From Spirochaetia bacterium (GTDB lineage: Bacteria > Spirochaetota > Spirochaetia > SP-2023), in contig CBDDCK010000005.1 of the NCBI GenBank assembly GCA_965225855.1, positions 352,001 to 416,000 on the forward strand: a stretch of 64,000 nt of DNA, read 5' to 3'. This document shows positions 28,515 through 62,711 of the stretch, piece by piece. Numbering within the stretch: position 1 is the first letter of the stretch; each line of letters starts with the position of its first letter. Made by a program: the position numbers and the translations under genes. The notes under the pieces are model-generated. The model was not told where the DNA came from, ran no database searches, and worked only from the letters and a program-made list of their open reading frames with translations.

Positions 28515-28549
28515 GCAACCTTGGTAAGTTTTTTAGCAAGGTTGCTTTT
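28515..28549 (+). terminator. Rho-independent terminator in the shared 3' block (copies at about 36778-36813 and 53438-53472)
   Basis: GCAACCTTG / CAAGGTTGC stem plus TTTT; a second hairpin GCCTTGGTAT / ATACCAAGGC follows at 28560-28586. Confidence 0.7.
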
Positions 28550-28618
28550 ACCAATTATAGCCTTGGTATGGAGAAAATACCAAGGCCAAAACCACCAAGC
28601 TAAAACGTTGGCATAAAA

Positions 28619-29061
28619 ATTAAGAGAGTCTCTTAATGCCCAACAACAGAATTTCTTAATGCATAAAAAGAGAGTTTCTTAATACCCAATAAGAGAGTTT
28701 CTTAATGCATAACAACAGAGTTTCTTAATACACAACAACAGAGTTTCTTAATACACAACAACAGAGTTTCTTAATACACAACAACAGAGTTTCTTAATAC
28801 ACAACAACAGAGTTTCTTAATACACAACAACAGAGTTTCTTAATACACAACAACAGAGTTTCTTAATACACAACAACAGAGTTTCTTAATACACAATAAG
28901 AGAGTTTCTTAATACACAATAAGAGAGTTTCTTAATACACAACAACAGAGTTTCTTAATACACAACAACAGAGTTTCTTAATACACAACAACAGAGTTTC
29001 TTAATACACAACAACAGAGTTTCTTAATACCCAATAAGAGAGTTTCTTAATACACAACAAG
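28619..29061. repeat. 23-bp tandem array, 19 units, consensus AGAGTTTCTTAATACACAACAAC
   Basis: TCTTAAT recurs every 23 bp from 28631 to 29045; the array opens with the palindrome ATTAAGAGA-G-TCTCTTAAT. Confidence 0.97.
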
Positions 29062-29272
29062 AATTTTTTGTAACAAGATAAACTTTGGCCAAGCCTTGCT
29101 TTCCTTGCTTTCCTTTTTGGTTGTTTGGTTTTGCAATGTCAACAACGCACTTTAACGAATACTGTTTACAGCGGTGCGAGTTAGATAGGACGCAGAATTT
29201 TTAACAAAATTTGATAGCAATGTTAGAATTCTATACTTGAATATTTACAGTCAAACTATACAATCCAGCACC

Positions 29273-36909: not shown

Positions 36910-37023
36910 CATAGCAAGGCACTAAAAAATTTATTAAGCCTACAAACTTTTTTTAGTAATAGCTTTGAACAAAAGCTTTGAACAAACCCCTTACAATAAT
37001 TATTACCAGAACGTTGCCATAAC

Positions 37024-37143
37024 CATTAAGAGAGTCTCTTAATGCCTAACAAGAGAATTTCTTAATAACTAACAACAGAGTTTCTTAATGCCCAACAACA
37101 GAGTTTCTTAATGCCCAACAACAGAATTTCTTAATGCCTAACA
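37024..37143. repeat. Second 23-bp tandem array (5 units), same family as 28619-29061
   Basis: Opens with CATTAAGAGA-G-TCTCTTAATG, followed by AGA(G/A)TTTCTTAATGCCCAACAAC-type units. Confidence 0.93.
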
Positions 37144-37150
37144 TGGGTAT

Positions 37151-37690
37151 TTATTCATTGGTTTTTTGCTGTTGCAATTGACTGTGCTTTAAGGGGCTAC
37201 CATCTAGTAATGTAACACGCTGCCCAATATCGACGTTGTGCCGCTCAAACCAACCTTGATTGAGCTCTAAAGCAAAGCGCATCGGCCAGCGCGAAGCTAT
37301 GGTAGTAGTGTCCAAAGGTTGCATATGGTAGATTTCACAGATTATGCCATCTTTATCTAAATAGGCTATGCTAAGGGGTATCAGCGTATTCTTCATATAA
37401 AAACGCAAGACTTTATCTTGTGGGAAGCTAAATAGCATGCCGTGCATTTCTGCCATAGATTGCCGGTGCATTAGGCCTTGGGCTTGTTGTTCGGGGCTAA
37501 GGGCTAGCTCGGCCTCTATGGTTTGCTTGCCCACTTTGAGCTCAATACTTACTAATGGCTCTTTTTTGCAGGCCCATAGAACCAACAGCAAACTAATGGC
37601 CCATAGGGCGTCTATTAGGGGCTTTATTGGCAGTGGCCTTTGGGCCAGTGTGCAGCTAGCAGAATAGCACAATAGATGGTTGTGATTCAT
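37151..37690 (-). CDS. DUF192-family protein (probable lipoprotein)
   Basis: QGLMHR..GMLF, FYMKNTLIPLSIAY and ALELNQGWF motifs; LWA-C lipobox-like. Confidence 0.9.
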   Translation of the reverse strand: MNHNHLLCYSASCTLAQRPLPIKPLIDALWAISLLLVLWACKKEPLVSIELKVGKQTIEAELALSPEQQAQGLMHRQSMAEMHGMLFSFPQDKVLRFYMKNTLIPLSIAYLDKDGIICEIYHMQPLDTTTIASRWPMRFALELNQGWFERHNVDIGQRVTLLDGSPLKHSQLQQQKTNE

Positions 37691-49800: not shown

Positions 49801-50009
49801 CTTTTTGAGTCTGCTTCCTAGCTTTTTCGAAATTTTTTATGGCAATAATATCTTGAAATTTTATGCTTACTTTTTTATATCGCAGCCGCCATATTTCTGG
49901 CCTAGCCGATGGAAATGGTTATTTGGAAAGTAGTCATTTGTTTTCCCATTTATTGGAGCATTGGCTGCGAGGTACAGCACAAAAATTCGGTTGTAGCATC
50001 AAAAGTTGC

Positions 50010-50241
50010 AGATATTGATGGTTTTGGCCTTATGCCGTACAGAAATGAGTTATATAGGTCTGGCTTTTGTTCCAGCGTGATTCCCCAATTGCCGTTGTGT
50101 GAATATGCTTTGGCTGAATTACAGTGGCTAATGACGCAGGCCAATAATAAAGCCAGTGCGGAGGATGATTTCTACGGTCAGCCACATCAAAGTTGGCAGG
50201 AAATTTATTCTGCTTGAATAAAGAAGATATTTACCGTAAGG
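50010..50241 (+). repeat. 232-bp direct repeat, left copy (putative target duplication)
   Basis: AGATATTGATGG...TTTACCGTAAGG; matches 53703-53934 with 2 substitutions. Confidence 0.97.
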
Positions 50242-50418
50242 TGAAAGAGGACATGATAACTTAACGGGATAAGACGTGATAACTCGGGATTTTTTGGAAC
50301 AAATGGGAAGGTAAAAATTGGCTTACTTTCCAAAATAAAAAGGTAAAAAAATTTTTGTTTTTCGGCATATGGGTTGTCGGCAACAATATGCTTTATATCA
50401 TGGTAACGGGCCACGGTC

Positions 50419-50465
50419 TCAAAAAGCTAGTAAGGTTTTGACTGAAAACCTTACTAGCTTTTTGA
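50419..50465. terminator. Bidirectional terminator-like hairpin inside the left end of the element
   Basis: TCAAAAAGCTAGTAAGGTTTT-GACTG-AAAACCTTACTAGCTTTTTGA; perfect 21-bp stem. Confidence 0.75.
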
Positions 50466-50701
50466 TTGGCAACCTAGGGATTTTCCAACAAACCCGATCG
50501 ACACTGTATGGCCAAAGTTGTTTGCAACGAGCGCTTTCGCTATATACCCACAAGAGCCGCAAGGTAAAGGCCAAAGGGCTTCAGATAAAAAAAGACTAAA
50601 ACATAGCCAAACGATTATTAATGATAGGCTGGTAAAAGAAATTTTAGCTAAGGCTAAAGCAGAACAATACCGATAAATAAATACCCCAGCCCCCTCTAAC
50701 T

Positions 50702-50820
50702 ATAGAATTACCTCCCACCTATTTAATAGAATCGACCTAAATCTATCAATAGAATTACCTCCCACCTATTGATAGAATTGACCCAAATCTATCAATAGAT
50801 TTACCTCCCACCTATTAATA
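50702..50820. repeat. About 2.5 copies of a 46-bp repeat made of two alternating 23-bp subunits
   Basis: ATAGAATTACCTCCCACCTATTG alternating with ATAGAATTGACCCAAATCTATCA. Confidence 0.9.
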
Positions 50821-50849
50821 CCCTAGTCTTTAATGAAATTTTCTACATC

Positions 50850-50995
50850 GGCACATAATCCAGGACCTATACAACAATCATCGGAAATCGTTGGCCAAAT
50901 TCTGAACGCCCCTGAAAGAATAATATCCCGTTTTCATTTTCATTAAATGTTTCACCTTTTGGAGATTGCCCCATAGTGTAATTGAGGTGTAATCA
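50850..50995 (-). pseudogene. hsdS: Fragment of a type I restriction-modification specificity subunit (HsdS target-recognition domain), internally deleted
   Basis: Minus strand reads MGQSPKGETFNENENGILFFQGRSEFGQRFP, then in a shifted frame DCCIGPGLCA. These are the start and end motifs of a common HsdS TRD type, with the middle missing. Confidence 0.8.
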
Positions 50996-51278
50996 AGTAT
51001 TTTATTCAATTCTACACTTTGCCACCCCCCAAAGGCCAAACAAAGGCCAAACAAAGGCCAACACCCTTAAGCCTTTTGATTGGCATGGATTTTGAACCAC
51101 CTTACAACACTAAACAACACTAACACACAAAAAAAGTGCCCAAAACATAAAAAAGCACAAAAAAACTTACAAAAAGCTTATATAGGCCTTGACGCAACAC
51201 CCCCCTAGCAAAATGGGGCGCTGTACACTAGCCCGTATGGGTTGGCTAATCTTTATCCATTTGTTGGAGGTATTGCTT

Positions 51279-53399
51279 ATGTATAAGCACAAACTATTTT
51301 TATTGCCTGTAGCCTGGCTACTGGCCTTTATGGCCTTGGCCTGCGCCCCACCCGATGACGATGATGCGCCATCTTCTGGGCCGTCTGGGCCTGCAATCAC
51401 CAGTGCAAGCTACGATGTTGGCACGGCTCTGTTAACCGTACAAGGTACTGACTTAAGTCCTACAGAAGCCCAAATCCAAACTATCACGGTAGCTGGCGTA
51501 GCCTTAAGTTCCTATACTGCAGATGACGATGCCACTGGGGTAAATAGTAACGGTCTTGAACAAGGTAAGTACCGTATTAAAAGCGATGGCACAGCGCTTT
51601 GGCTTAGACTTACCGATCGACATAAAGCTACTCTGAATGGCAAGGTGGATAGCAATGGTCTAAAAAAAGGCTTGCTTACTAGCTCTGGTGCTTGGGCGGG
51701 TTTAGATACAGCCAAAGACTTAACCGTTAGGAATATACCCGCAGCCGAACAAGTCGATGATCAATCGCCTAAGCAAACTGAAGATAAGCAGTCGCCTAAG
51801 TTACCCGAAGCCGAACAAACCGAAGAAGTCGATGATGAATCGCCTAAGCAACCTAAAGACAAACAAGTCGAACAAGCTGAAGAAGAGTCGCCTAAGCAAC
51901 CTAAAGCTGAAGATCAGTCGCCTGAAGCTGCAATTACCGGTGCAACCTACAATGTTGGCACGGCGCTGTTAACCGTACAAGGTTCTAACTTAAGTGCTAC
52001 AACTGCGACCCAAGCCCAAATCCAAACCATCACGGTAGATGGGGTAGACTTAAATTCCTATATTGCAGATGGCACAGCCACTGGACCAGATAGTCGCGGT
52101 CTTGCAAAAGGTAAGTACCGCATTAAAAACGATGGCACAGCGCTTTGGCTTTACCTTACCGATACCGATAAAGCTACTCTGAATGGCAAGGACGGTATGA
52201 ATACCAATGGTCTAAAAGATGGGTTGCTTAGCGTTGGCACTGGTACTTGGGCGGGTTTAGATACAGCCAAAGCCTTGGCCGTTAGTGGTAACCCCGCACC
52301 CGCAATTACCAGTGCAACCTATGATGTTGGTACAGGCGAGTTATATATTAGAGGTGTCAAGTTACCGAAATTATTTGCAAGATGGGACTTTAGCAAATTG
52401 ACGCTTGTATCCGGTGATGGTAGTAATAGATACACATTACCAAGGCACGCAACTGCAGGTGAAAACACAGCCTCAGGTTCTCGTGTAGGTACAACCTACT
52501 TAAGTATTACTTTAAGCGGTAGTGTAAAAGCGGAAGCCGAGAAGATACTGGTTAACGATGGTGTTCGTGATAATAATGGTGCATACAACCTGGAAGCAGC
52601 AGCAGGATTTGCAGGTGGTAGCGCAGAAGACACAAGTAACCCTATTACCGTTAGTGGGTATAATATCATCAGCAAAGCAACCTACGATGCTAATACAGGC
52701 GAGTTAATTATTTTCGGTATCGGTAAACGTTTACCGGAAACAGTTGCAGAATGGGACTTTAGCAAATTGACGCTTGTATCCGGTGATGGTAGTAAGAGAT
52801 ACACATTACCAAGGCACGCAACTGCAGGTGAAAACACAGCCTCAGGTTCTCGTGTAAGTGCAACATTCTTAGCGATTACTTTAAGCGGTAGTGTAAAAGC
52901 GGAAGCCGAGAAGATACTGGTTAACGATGGTGTTCGTGATGCTAATGGTGCATACAACCTGGAAGCAGCAGCAGAATTTGTATCTGGTAGGGTAGCAGAA
53001 ACCAGCAACCCTATTACCGTTAGTGGCTACGTAAGCCAGATCGAATACGTATTATACACAACTATTAATGGCCAGTTAACTATTAGAGGTACGAGGTTAC
53101 CGACAGCAGTTGCAGATTGGGACTTTAGCAAATTGACGCTTGTATCCGGTGATGGTAGTAATAGATACACATTACCCCGGCACTCAACTGTAGGTGAAAA
53201 CAAAGCCACAGGTTCTAGTGCAAGTGGAACAAACTTAGTGATTACTTTAAGCGGTAGTGTAAAAGCGGAAGTCGAGAAGATACTGGTTAAGGCTGGTTTT
53301 CGTGATAATGCTGGTGCATACAACCTGGAAGCAGCAGCAGAATTTATATCTGGTAGTCGAGAAGACCTAAAAAATGCTATTAAAGTTATAGATTGGTAA
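51279..53399 (+). CDS. Modular surface lipoprotein, paralog 4 (A-linker-A-B-B-B)
   Basis: ATG 51279 after GGAGG; lipobox LAFMALA-C-APPDDDD; same A and B modules. Confidence 0.88.
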   Translation: MYKHKLFLLPVAWLLAFMALACAPPDDDDAPSSGPSGPAITSASYDVGTALLTVQGTDLSPTEAQIQTITVAGVALSSYTADDDATGVNSNGLEQGKYRIKSDGTALWLRLTDRHKATLNGKVDSNGLKKGLLTSSGAWAGLDTAKDLTVRNIPAAEQVDDQSPKQTEDKQSPKLPEAEQTEEVDDESPKQPKDKQVEQAEEESPKQPKAEDQSPEAAITGATYNVGTALLTVQGSNLSATTATQAQIQTITVDGVDLNSYIADGTATGPDSRGLAKGKYRIKNDGTALWLYLTDTDKATLNGKDGMNTNGLKDGLLSVGTGTWAGLDTAKALAVSGNPAPAITSATYDVGTGELYIRGVKLPKLFARWDFSKLTLVSGDGSNRYTLPRHATAGENTASGSRVGTTYLSITLSGSVKAEAEKILVNDGVRDNNGAYNLEAAAGFAGGSAEDTSNPITVSGYNIISKATYDANTGELIIFGIGKRLPETVAEWDFSKLTLVSGDGSKRYTLPRHATAGENTASGSRVSATFLAITLSGSVKAEAEKILVNDGVRDANGAYNLEAAAEFVSGRVAETSNPITVSGYVSQIEYVLYTTINGQLTIRGTRLPTAVADWDFSKLTLVSGDGSNRYTLPRHSTVGENKATGSSASGTNLVITLSGSVKAEVEKILVKAGFRDNAGAYNLEAAAEFISGSREDLKNAIKVIDW

Positions 53400-53702
53400 G
53401 TAGGGTTTGGTTGTTGCAACGTTTGCATTTGAAAATTGCAACCTTGGTAAGTTTTTTAGCAAGGTTGCTTTTGCCAATTATAGCCTTGGTATGGAGAAAA
53501 TACCAAGGCTGTAAAAAAATTTATTAAGGCTACAAATTTTTTTGTCAAGGCTGTAAATTTTTTTATTAAGGCTGCTTTTGCCAATTCCAGCCTTGGTAAA
53601 TTTTTTTATCAAGGTTGCTTTTGCCAATTATAGCCATTCTGGAAAGTAGAAAAAAATCGAGTTATCACGTCCGATGGCACAAAGTTATCACGTCCTGCAT
53701 CA

Positions 53703-53934
53703 AGATATTGATGGTTTTGGCCTTATGCCGTACAGAAATGAGTTATATGGGTCTGGCTTTTGTTCCAGCGTGATTCCCCAATTGCCGTTGTGTGAATATG
53801 CTTTGGCTGAATTACAGTGGCTAATGACGCAGGCCAATAATAAAGCCAGTGCGGAGGATGATTTCTACGGTCAGCCACATCAAAGTTGGCAGGAAATTCA
53901 TTCTGCTTGAATAAAGAAGATATTTACCGTAAGG
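53703..53934 (+). repeat. 232-bp direct repeat, right copy
   Basis: Matches 50010-50241 except TATAGG/TATGGG and ATTTAT/ATTCAT. Confidence 0.97.
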
Positions 53935-60966: not shown

Positions 60967-61790
60967 ATGTCAATAAAAGAACAGTTTGAACAACATTTCA
61001 AGGGCTTTGTTCTTGGATTGCAAGAGCACATTAGTACAGAAGACGGTCAATGGGCTGTAAAAGGATTTATTGATGTATTAAAAAATGTCTATACGATTTC
61101 TTCTGACACCAAAATTGTATCAAAAATTCTTGAAATCCATCTGTTTCCCAAAATTATGGAGTTTGCCAAATTATATGGATACAAAATAGTTTTAGCAGAA
61201 CATCAAAATTACTACCCAGATATTTCTTTTGTCAAAATTGAAGATGAGACAATAAAATTTGCTGTTGATTTCAAGACCACATACAGATGCCCTCAAAAGC
61301 CATTTTTATGCAATGGTTTTACGCTGGGCTCTCATGGAAAATATTTTGAAGACAGAACTAGCACACAAAAAACATCCAGTTTCCATATGCTACATATGCG
61401 GGGCATTTTTGTTTAGGAATTATCTACAACCGTGTTGAGGGAGCTTCAATTGATGAAACAAGAAGCTATGAAATTGGGCAGCTTCAGTCTATAACATCAG
61501 TGGTAAGAGATTTTCAGTTCTTTGTCGCTGAAAAATGGAAAATTGCTAGTGATAAAAGTGGGAGTGGCAATACTGCAAACATTGGCAGTATCAACAATAT
61601 TAAAGATATTATCAATGGAAATGGCATGTTCTCTAAGTTAGGTGAGACATGGTTTGATGATTATTGGATGAATTACAAAAAAATCACAGTTTCCGATAGC
61701 AAAGGTGGTACGAAAAAGATCGCCTCACTAAAAGATTTTGTAACATACCGCCAAGGCGATGTATCGTTAATCGTAACCAAGTACAATTGA
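60967..61790 (+). pseudogene. EcoRV-family type II restriction endonuclease, split by one frameshift
   Basis: ORFs 60967-61416 and 61500-61790 join into one protein with SDTKIVSKILE, QNYYPD, VDFKTTY, FTLG and KWKIASDKSGSGNTANIGS, resembling R.EcoRV. Frameshift at about 61362-61372. Confidence 0.88.
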
Positions 61791-61808
61791 GCACCGAAAG
61801 AGTAAGAA

Positions 61809-62711
61809 ATGAAAGTACATGTTCCCCCCATTAAATCGCAAGGAATAAAAACCAAGCTCGTCCCTTGGATCAACAGCATTATTCCTCATGACTTTGATGG
61901 CCGTTGGATTGAGCCATTTATGGGGACTGGAGTTGTTGCCTTTAATCTGGCTCTTGAACATGCCTTTTTATGTGATACAAACCCACATTTGGTCCATTTT
62001 TATCAGTCCATTGCCGATGGTAAAATAACACCAGAAATAGTAAAAATATTTTTAGAAAAGGAAGGGGCAATATTATTAGAAAAAGGTGAATCTTACTATT
62101 ACGAAATAAGGGATAGATTCAATAATAATCACGCTTCATTGGATTTTCTATTTCTTAATAGAGCCGGCTTTAATGGTATGATTCGCTTTAATCGCAAAGG
62201 CGGTTTAAATATTCCATTTTGTAAAAAACCACAACGCTTTGTCCAAGCCTATATCACAAAAATTGTCAATCAAGTTGCCTATGTAAGCCGATTATTCAAG
62301 GCTAAAGATTTTGTTTTCCAATGCCAGTCATTTGAAGAAACAATTGCCTCTAGCGATTCCGAAGATATTATTTATTGTGATCCACCTTACATTGGCCGAC
62401 ATGTTGATTATTACAATGGCTGGAATGGAGAGCATGAAAAAGCACTTTATACAGCATTGTCAAAAACACCGAGCAAGTTCATTTTATCAACATGGCACCA
62501 CAATGATTTTAGAGAAAATGAATATATAGAATTATTTTGGAAAGATTTCTATATATTGACAAGGCAACATTTTTATCATGTCGGAGGCAGGGAAAAGTTT
62601 CGCAATTCTATGATGGAGGCAATTGTTGCCAATTATGAAACTGCTACATATTGTTGCCAAGAACTCAAACAACCAGAGCAAATGATGCTGTTTTTAAAAG
62701 CGCAGGTATAA
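61809..62711 (+). CDS. DNA adenine methyltransferase, M.EcoRV/Dam family
   Basis: N-terminus VPPIKSQGIKTKLVP resembles M.EcoRV; WIEPFMGTG, FLFLNRAGFNG and CDPPY motifs; intact. Confidence 0.92.
   Translation: MKVHVPPIKSQGIKTKLVPWINSIIPHDFDGRWIEPFMGTGVVAFNLALEHAFLCDTNPHLVHFYQSIADGKITPEIVKIFLEKEGAILLEKGESYYYEIRDRFNNNHASLDFLFLNRAGFNGMIRFNRKGGLNIPFCKKPQRFVQAYITKIVNQVAYVSRLFKAKDFVFQCQSFEETIASSDSEDIIYCDPPYIGRHVDYYNGWNGEHEKALYTALSKTPSKFILSTWHHNDFRENEYIELFWKDFYILTRQHFYHVGGREKFRNSMMEAIVANYETATYCCQELKQPEQMMLFLKAQV

Follow-up and report, generated by a model that had tools for sequence, protein, structure and literature searches.

We analysed a window of 64,000 nucleotides of a Spirochaetia bacterium (assembly GCA_965225855.1, here genome G000, contig C5, positions 352001-416000), in which an element at 50242-53702 carries a surface-lipoprotein gene and is flanked by a long direct repeat; positions without a contig prefix are those of the window. 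With a probability of roughly 85%, we interpret this element as a natural mini-Mu: a lipoprotein gene set between the ends of a resident prophage of the B3/BcepMu type, likely moved in trans with a 6-bp target duplication, the 232-bp flanking repeat having likely been added later through a second transposition junction and homologous recombination.

The element starts with TGA and ends with TCA, and its two ends align without gaps, 34 of 45 bases being identical. Each end contains two GAC(A/G)TGATAACT boxes at positions 9 and 32, with a 23-bp period; those of the left end start at 50250 and 50273, and those of the right end, on the minus strand, at 53694 and 53671. The direct repeat of 232 bp (50010-50241 and 53703-53934) abuts both ends, and its copies differ only at repeat positions 47 (A/G) and 197 (T/C). 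No transposase lies inside: the sole long open reading frame (ORF) encodes the lipoprotein (ATG start, 51279-53399, 706 aa), and the genome's transposase and B-ATPase used as tblastn queries gave no meaningful match within the element (best E 0.33). In all these points the original prediction, drawn from the letters alone, was accurate. The promoter and terminator blocks that it had described are supported only as sequence shared among lipoprotein genes, since site counts did not exceed those of shuffled sequences (terminator-like sites, 2 in the element versus 3.7; promoter-like sites, 6 versus 6.9). End boxes were not found near the other three lipoprotein paralogues of the window. The element and its flanks are made up as follows.

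50010..50241, plus strand: left copy of D, the 232-bp host segment; what is left of the 3' portion of a large host gene, and likely the secondarily added copy; matched by tblastx to the intact gene of the congener G002, collinear across both junctions.
50010..50015, plus strand (other copy 53703-53708): AGATAT, likely the original 6-bp target duplication; a contig of sequencing run X4 joins 50015 to 50242, skipping 226 bases.
50236..50241, plus strand: GTAAGG, target hexamer of the second left junction, likely made by the transposase; fits NYWWRN at 4/4 positions and has no microhomology with the left end.
50242..50348, plus strand: phage-derived left end with TGA tip and boxes 50250-50261 and 50273-50284; 94.8% identity over 96 bp (50253-50348) to the prophage left end at G000:C5:1257688.
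50349..51278, plus strand: non-phage upstream modules, by sequence comparison a patchwork common to lipoprotein paralogues, with a GGAGG ribosome-binding site at the end.
51279..53399, plus strand: cargo gene, one of 107 paralogues; 706-aa lipoprotein with signal peptide, Cys22, five predicted beta-sandwich (Ig-like, that is immunoglobulin-like) domains and an acidic linker.
53400..53629, plus strand: downstream short repeats (family D18), common in sequence to many paralogues with or without ends.
53630..53702, minus strand: phage-derived right end with boxes 53660-53671 and 53683-53694 and TCA tip; matches the right end of the prophage (G000:C5:1293766) with 97.3% identity over 73 bp.
53703..53934, plus strand: right copy of D, retaining the original right junction; begins with AGATAT and keeps the congener's Met codon at mismatch position 47.

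Phage sequence retained by the element amounts to only about 107 + 73 bp. Its source was found in the same genome (2.71 Mb, 5 contigs, 94% complete), whose host is a spirochaete as judged by three FlaA matches (none in 14 control genomes). A prophage of ~36.1 kb (C5 about 1,257,688-1,293,766) is bounded by the same ends as the cassettes, with 97% identity to the right end of the element over 73 bp and 95% to its left end over 96 bp; in other copies the shared left-end stretch reaches about 270 bp. The prophage transposase is the only rve-domain match in the genome (PHROG 310, E 2e-70). Its residues D144, D238 and E274 are conserved in the alignment with BcepMu gp09, and its nearest phage relatives are the transposases of the B3/BcepMu/phiE255 group (28-38% identity). 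The prophage also encodes a B-type ATPase (PHROG 296), a Mor-like activator (PHROG 532), terminase, portal, protease, major head, sheath, tape measure and baseplate proteins; the transposase and B-ATPase ORFs are whole. Nearly all genes are on one strand, an order unlike that of B3. Further copies of the prophage right arm occur at the ends of contigs C3 and C4, and at G000:C3:1-928 the right end is followed by 154 bp (94%) of repressor-region prophage DNA, a possible self-insertion of the phage.

A cognate DDE transposase, whose existence elsewhere had been anticipated, is therefore present in this prophage. The original prediction was also right in taking the element for a DDE element that is non-autonomous, has ends of the Tn552/Mu type and disperses genes for surface lipoproteins. 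The notion of an undescribed transposon class found no support, as the ends belong to the resident transposable prophage. Judging from the identity of the ends and the intact transposase ORF, this transposase likely moved the cassettes in trans. The congener G002 provides an independent check: its ends being laid out in the same way, a related prophage there encodes a transposase with 55% identity, and the two-box end pattern occurs exactly twice in that genome, at the two ends of its own prophage, and is absent from G001 and G003. DNA matches to the ends were obtained in one of 30 relatives, at 76-78%, and the exact two-box pattern was absent from the genome, viral and metagenome collections searched, among which the own genome may not be included. 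A lone phage left end was noticed in G001 (C4:1944545, L008) by a tail-fibre-like fragment, far from the two transposases of that genome.

A genome-wide search yielded 31 left-type and 32 right-type ends, counts that exclude a spurious right-end call at C5:1875763 and treat C5:1027022 as a left end. The genome contains 107 full-length paralogues of the cargo (386-1279 aa), together 8.1% of its length, all with a Cys at positions 21-24. Ends were found on 40 of them: 17 have both (2.35-3.70 kb), 13 the left end alone and 10 the right end alone, leaving 67 without either. A lipoprotein gene was present inside every short two-ended element (17/17). Eight of the 32 right ends are short of one 23-bp box (e.g. 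C5:48292, C5:1452721), and two of these keep exact 6-bp duplications.

B3/Tn552-family transposases leave 6-bp duplications (PMC8705779). Exact 6-bp duplications flank five of the 17 two-ended copies, against 0.02 expected from junction base preferences; one copy, that of the window, has 232 bp, eleven have none, and intermediate lengths did not occur. The junction hexamers share a palindromic preference, NYWWRN, which 40 of 48 distinct hexamers fit at three or more of the four positions, compared with 40% of random hexamers. Both hexamers of the studied locus score well (GTAAGG 4, AGATAT 3). Tests of ORF continuity across junctions were uninformative, the junctions lying outside long ORFs. 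A paralogous empty site, in which GTTAGG occurs once, was found at C5:1441001-1441075 for the element at C5:1449578-1452721. The original prediction had supposed very long target duplications, an idea that the data do not support, and had named in advance, as evidence to the contrary, other copies with only short ones. This is what the genome contains: only one of 17 copies has a long duplication, and a 6-bp form was seen at the very same site in run X4.

We then examined the origin of the 232-bp repeat. D is host DNA: it represents the 3' part, now decayed, of a large gene of which G002 has an intact version, and D is single there; the empty arrangement a-D-b, where a and b are the flanks, is collinear with the G002 gene across both junctions. 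A 102-aa ORF at 49909-50217, considered as a gene rescued by the duplication, was ruled out, being a frame chimera of this pseudogene. Contigs of four of the seven listed sequencing runs were compared at the locus; X1 and X3 are one sample, probably the source of the assembly, and X4 comes from another study. The X4 contig covers 49808-50015 and then jumps to 50242, giving the joint a-AGATAT-left end, which is the exact partner of the right junction of G000 (right end-AGATAT). The X4 strain shows 12 differences in 1,948 listed flanking bases. The two copies of D differ at 2/232 positions, similar to strain divergence (0.6-0.9%).

These observations suggest the following history. A cassette would first have inserted at AGATAT in the dead host gene, giving a-AGATAT-[E]-D-b, where E is the element; this step is supported by the X4 contig. 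The left end would then have joined GTAAGG, 226 bp further on, by one of two routes that we consider equally likely, each with a little less than an even chance. Intramolecular replicative transposition produces an inversion or else a pair of circles, both of which contain one mini-Mu and which general recombination can rejoin (PMC5847225). Attack at GTAAGG would give a circle of exactly the element plus D, and local replicative transposition may have released [E+D] in this form. In the second route, an independent insertion would have taken place in another chromosome copy or strain, and the cross-over would have been between two neighbouring insertions in different chromosomes. Finally, a RecA cross-over with a chromosome intact at AGATAT would have produced a-D-[E]-D-b. 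Both routes would need an intact allele in the same cell, provided by a second chromosome copy or by transfer. Polyploidy occurs in Borrelia, and mini-Mu elements can be transduced.

Several points weigh against the natural mini-Mu interpretation. As 67 of the 107 paralogues are end-less and only four of these have left-end remnants, spread of most of the family by phage transposition is not established; nor did short duplications around 55 end-less paralogues show a clear excess over shuffles. Eleven of the 17 two-ended copies have no duplication at all. The assembled prophage lacks the first 11 bp of its left end and has no flanking duplication, and several of its structural genes are split, for which assembly error may be part of the cause. 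It also counts against us that the action of the transposase in trans is deduced from its ORF and from the ends. The X4 joint was seen on a single contig, with 28 letters on its short side (below the 30-letter warning level) and three ambiguous letters, and the matching X4 right junction was not among the contig pieces listed. Mu-type target immunity, although leaky, should disfavour attack 226 bp away (PMC5977238). Matches of hexamers between elements, tried as proof of inversions, were not significant (3 versus 0.9 expected).

A second, older long flanking repeat exists in the genome: 308 bp (94.8%) at C5:1598896-1599203 and 1628792-1629100, about 30 kb apart. It lies right after the right end at C5:1,598,895 and recurs directly before a truncated left end at C5:1,628,797, with a joint of 6-base microhomology. 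Codons 1-39 of a gene fall within the segment. On the left side this gene is whole; the copy on the right contains a frameshift, and its differences are mostly conservative, as in another allele. The repeat may go back to a comparable repair, in which an intact allele came in, and an inversion between paralogues may have split the product afterwards. Long flanking repeats thus recur, as secondary products, and the existence of this case partly favours the original prediction.

In the first alternative, the transposase itself would sometimes make long, variable duplications in one step, as is reported for IS1549/IS1634, and the X4 form would have come from the 232-bp form by subsequent deletion. 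In favour of this, the two junctions both agree with the target consensus, the 308-bp repeat is a second long case, IS1549/IS1634 repeats range from 8 to 514 bp by a mechanism that is not known according to PMC2266710, and a 3-base TGA overlap could guide the deletion. Yet such a deletion must leave exactly the 6-bp scar of the family, of which five exact examples and no intermediate lengths were found among the 17 copies, and the 308-bp case ends in a microhomology joint inside the left end, not at its tip. Moreover, the transposase is of the B3/Tn552 type; no match to DDE_Tnp_1 (PF01609), the mark of an IS4-like transposase, was found in the 94%-complete genome, where no search aimed at IS1634 was made. 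We therefore regard a one-step origin as improbable. IS1549/IS1634 resemble our case in that a long direct repeat abuts both ends, but they are autonomous and have variable long repeats copy after copy, whereas 6 bp is the norm for the cassettes and the long repeat looks secondary (PMC2266710). With one of 17 copies long and five of 17 at 6 bp, the element is not of the IS1634 type.

Alternatively, the ends may be stranded phage scars, a few insertions beside lipoprotein genes having been copied by gene conversion, so that the cassette rarely or never moved as a unit. The large end-less majority would agree with this, as would the distribution of end status, which is unclustered on trees of the 5' and 3' parts of the paralogues (24-26 changes, the same as in shuffles), an outcome that a weak tree signal would also yield. 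Five left ends have one common outer flank, derived from a lipoprotein upstream region, and two right ends have 52 bp of flank in common. The paralogues themselves are mosaic: nearest neighbours by 5' and by 3' parts agree in only 8 of 105 genes. The common flank of the five left ends shows that ends have also been copied between paralogues by recombination. In the mini-Mu interpretation, too, recombination among the 107 paralogues likely swaps ends and flanks as well; this would account for the mosaic structure of the genes, for the 23 copies with one end and for the lack of a duplication in 11 two-ended copies. By contrast, movement as a unit is required by the five copies in which an exact 6-bp duplication encloses the gene together with its left and right ends, the 48 distinct junction hexamers share the target consensus, and all 17 short two-ended elements hold a lipoprotein gene. 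Stranded scars probably explain some copies and not the family, for which we find this account as improbable as a one-step duplication.

Still less probable is an assembly chimera of two strains with simple insertions 226 bp apart. In its favour, the runs were compared as contigs and no listed piece spans the locus. Against it, the X1/X3 contig of the left flank passes AGATAT and stops precisely at 50241, and the next starts 30 bases before 53935; contigs should break in this way when D is followed by the left end in one place and by downstream DNA in another. Moreover, X1/X3 have zero depth for the X4-type joint, both allele sets of D and similar flank depths (11.9 versus 9.4).

The cassettes, interpreted as natural mini-Mus, can be compared with known systems. 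Like the laboratory mini-Mu(LR), they consist of phage left and right ends around a non-phage gene, with no transposase (PMC3145075, PMC5847225). The laboratory construct is amplified in the chromosome by a helper transposase, with inversions, deletions and circles that rejoin by recombination (same papers). The cassettes differ from it in being natural, in having B3/Tn552-type phage ends with 6-bp instead of 5-bp duplications, and in carrying a host gene family of 107 mosaic paralogues. With our cassettes and their helper prophage, B3, BcepMu, phiE255 and the Leptospira transposable prophages have in common TG...CA ends, a 6-bp duplication, a Tn552-related DDE transposase with a B-ATPase and a Mor-like activator, and a length of about 36 kb (PMC8705779). 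B3 has two divergent arms (PMC8705779), whereas almost all genes of the helper, whose order was compared with that of BcepMu, share one strand, the terminase and portal genes lying to the left of the repressor.

The mobile insertion cassettes (MICs) of TnXax1 in Xanthomonas and the miniature inverted-repeat elements derived from Tn3 (TIMEs) of Pseudomonas are also non-autonomous, with a repeat-rich passenger family between the ends of an autonomous element and short duplications (PMC4337579, PMC4133298). They use 38-bp inverted repeats of the Tn3 family (same papers), whereas the ends and helper of our cassettes are those of a transposable phage, and the copy number of the cassettes in one genome is large by comparison (17 two-ended, 23 one-ended). 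In its way of working the cassette resembles a MIC; its ends, which come from a phage, set it apart from those of the Tn3 kind. A full-text literature search, with subscription papers mostly outside it, returned no account of a host gene family carried by a natural mini-Mu. The mini-Mu principle is known; phage-ended cassettes with surface-lipoprotein cargo are a new form of it.

Mini-Mu is familiar as a laboratory tool for gene amplification. The natural version carries a host surface-protein gene and is found on 40 of 107 paralogues of a family filling 8% of the genome, a route by which a phage may inflate a surface-protein family. The locus also suggests how a 6-bp duplication may grow in two steps into a long 'target duplication', the earlier state being seen in the X4 strain. 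This is a warning for the interpretation of long flanking repeats, and the long repeats of IS1634-type elements, so far unexplained, might hypothetically arise likewise.

The predicted structure of the cargo (mean predicted local distance difference test score, pLDDT, 76.7; 67-sequence alignment) comprises a signal helix, five beta-rich domains and a disordered acidic linker. Its best fold matches were tandem Ig arrays, with low whole-chain template-modelling (TM) scores, and the cargo is predicted to be a tandem Ig-like surface lipoprotein, which may serve as an adhesin or antigen. No Pfam or NCBIfam family scored above cut-off. A database search gave 92 matches, of which 86 are apparently the assembly's own paralogues, five come from other ENA assemblies and one is distant; the cargo query had no match in genomes G001-G005, three congeners among them, or in metagenome contigs. 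As recA is present in the genome, RecA-dependent excision of the antigen gene is possible. More speculatively, and in our view rather unlikely, the host might have captured phage transposition to its own benefit: a crippled resident prophage, retained for its transposase, would have dispersed the whole 107-member Ig-like repertoire in the form of mini-phage cassettes, and recombination among the scattered copies would make of them a variable library of adhesins or antigens. C-run motifs with G-quadruplex potential on the other strand number 33 within 1.3 kb upstream of 31 of the 107 paralogues, compared with 44 in the rest of the genome; G-quadruplex motifs occur at antigenic-variation loci.

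Gene order in G000 is scrambled to operon level relative to G003 (530 of 998 neighbour pairs kept), a comparison that gives no direction of change. None of 95 lipoprotein-containing intervals keeps the G003 order, against 6 of 82 controls for gaps above 2 kb. The comparison did not show the cassettes to be the cause of the scrambling: copies with clean 6-bp scars also lie at breakpoints, and neighbour pairs that are broken showed no association with cassettes (odds ratio 1.05, p 0.88). Single host genes, out of G003 order, were found between two inverted lipoprotein cassettes (C5:1296066-1303325 and 1620029-1628797) and may represent composite moves. In addition, a right and a left end 26.5 kb apart (C5:1590138-1616622) share ATTAGG; this possible composite transposition of host DNA is not significant alone.

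Other repeats accompany the lipoprotein genes. A 23-bp tandem array lies 3' of other paralogues of the window (28521-29141 and 36927-37179), and a separate 46-bp repeat occurs upstream of paralogues and within prophage genes. Elsewhere in the window, at 60967-62711, a fragment of an EcoRV-like endonuclease (149 aa, about half of the Pfam model) adjoins a D12 adenine methyltransferase; this is likely a broken restriction-modification system.

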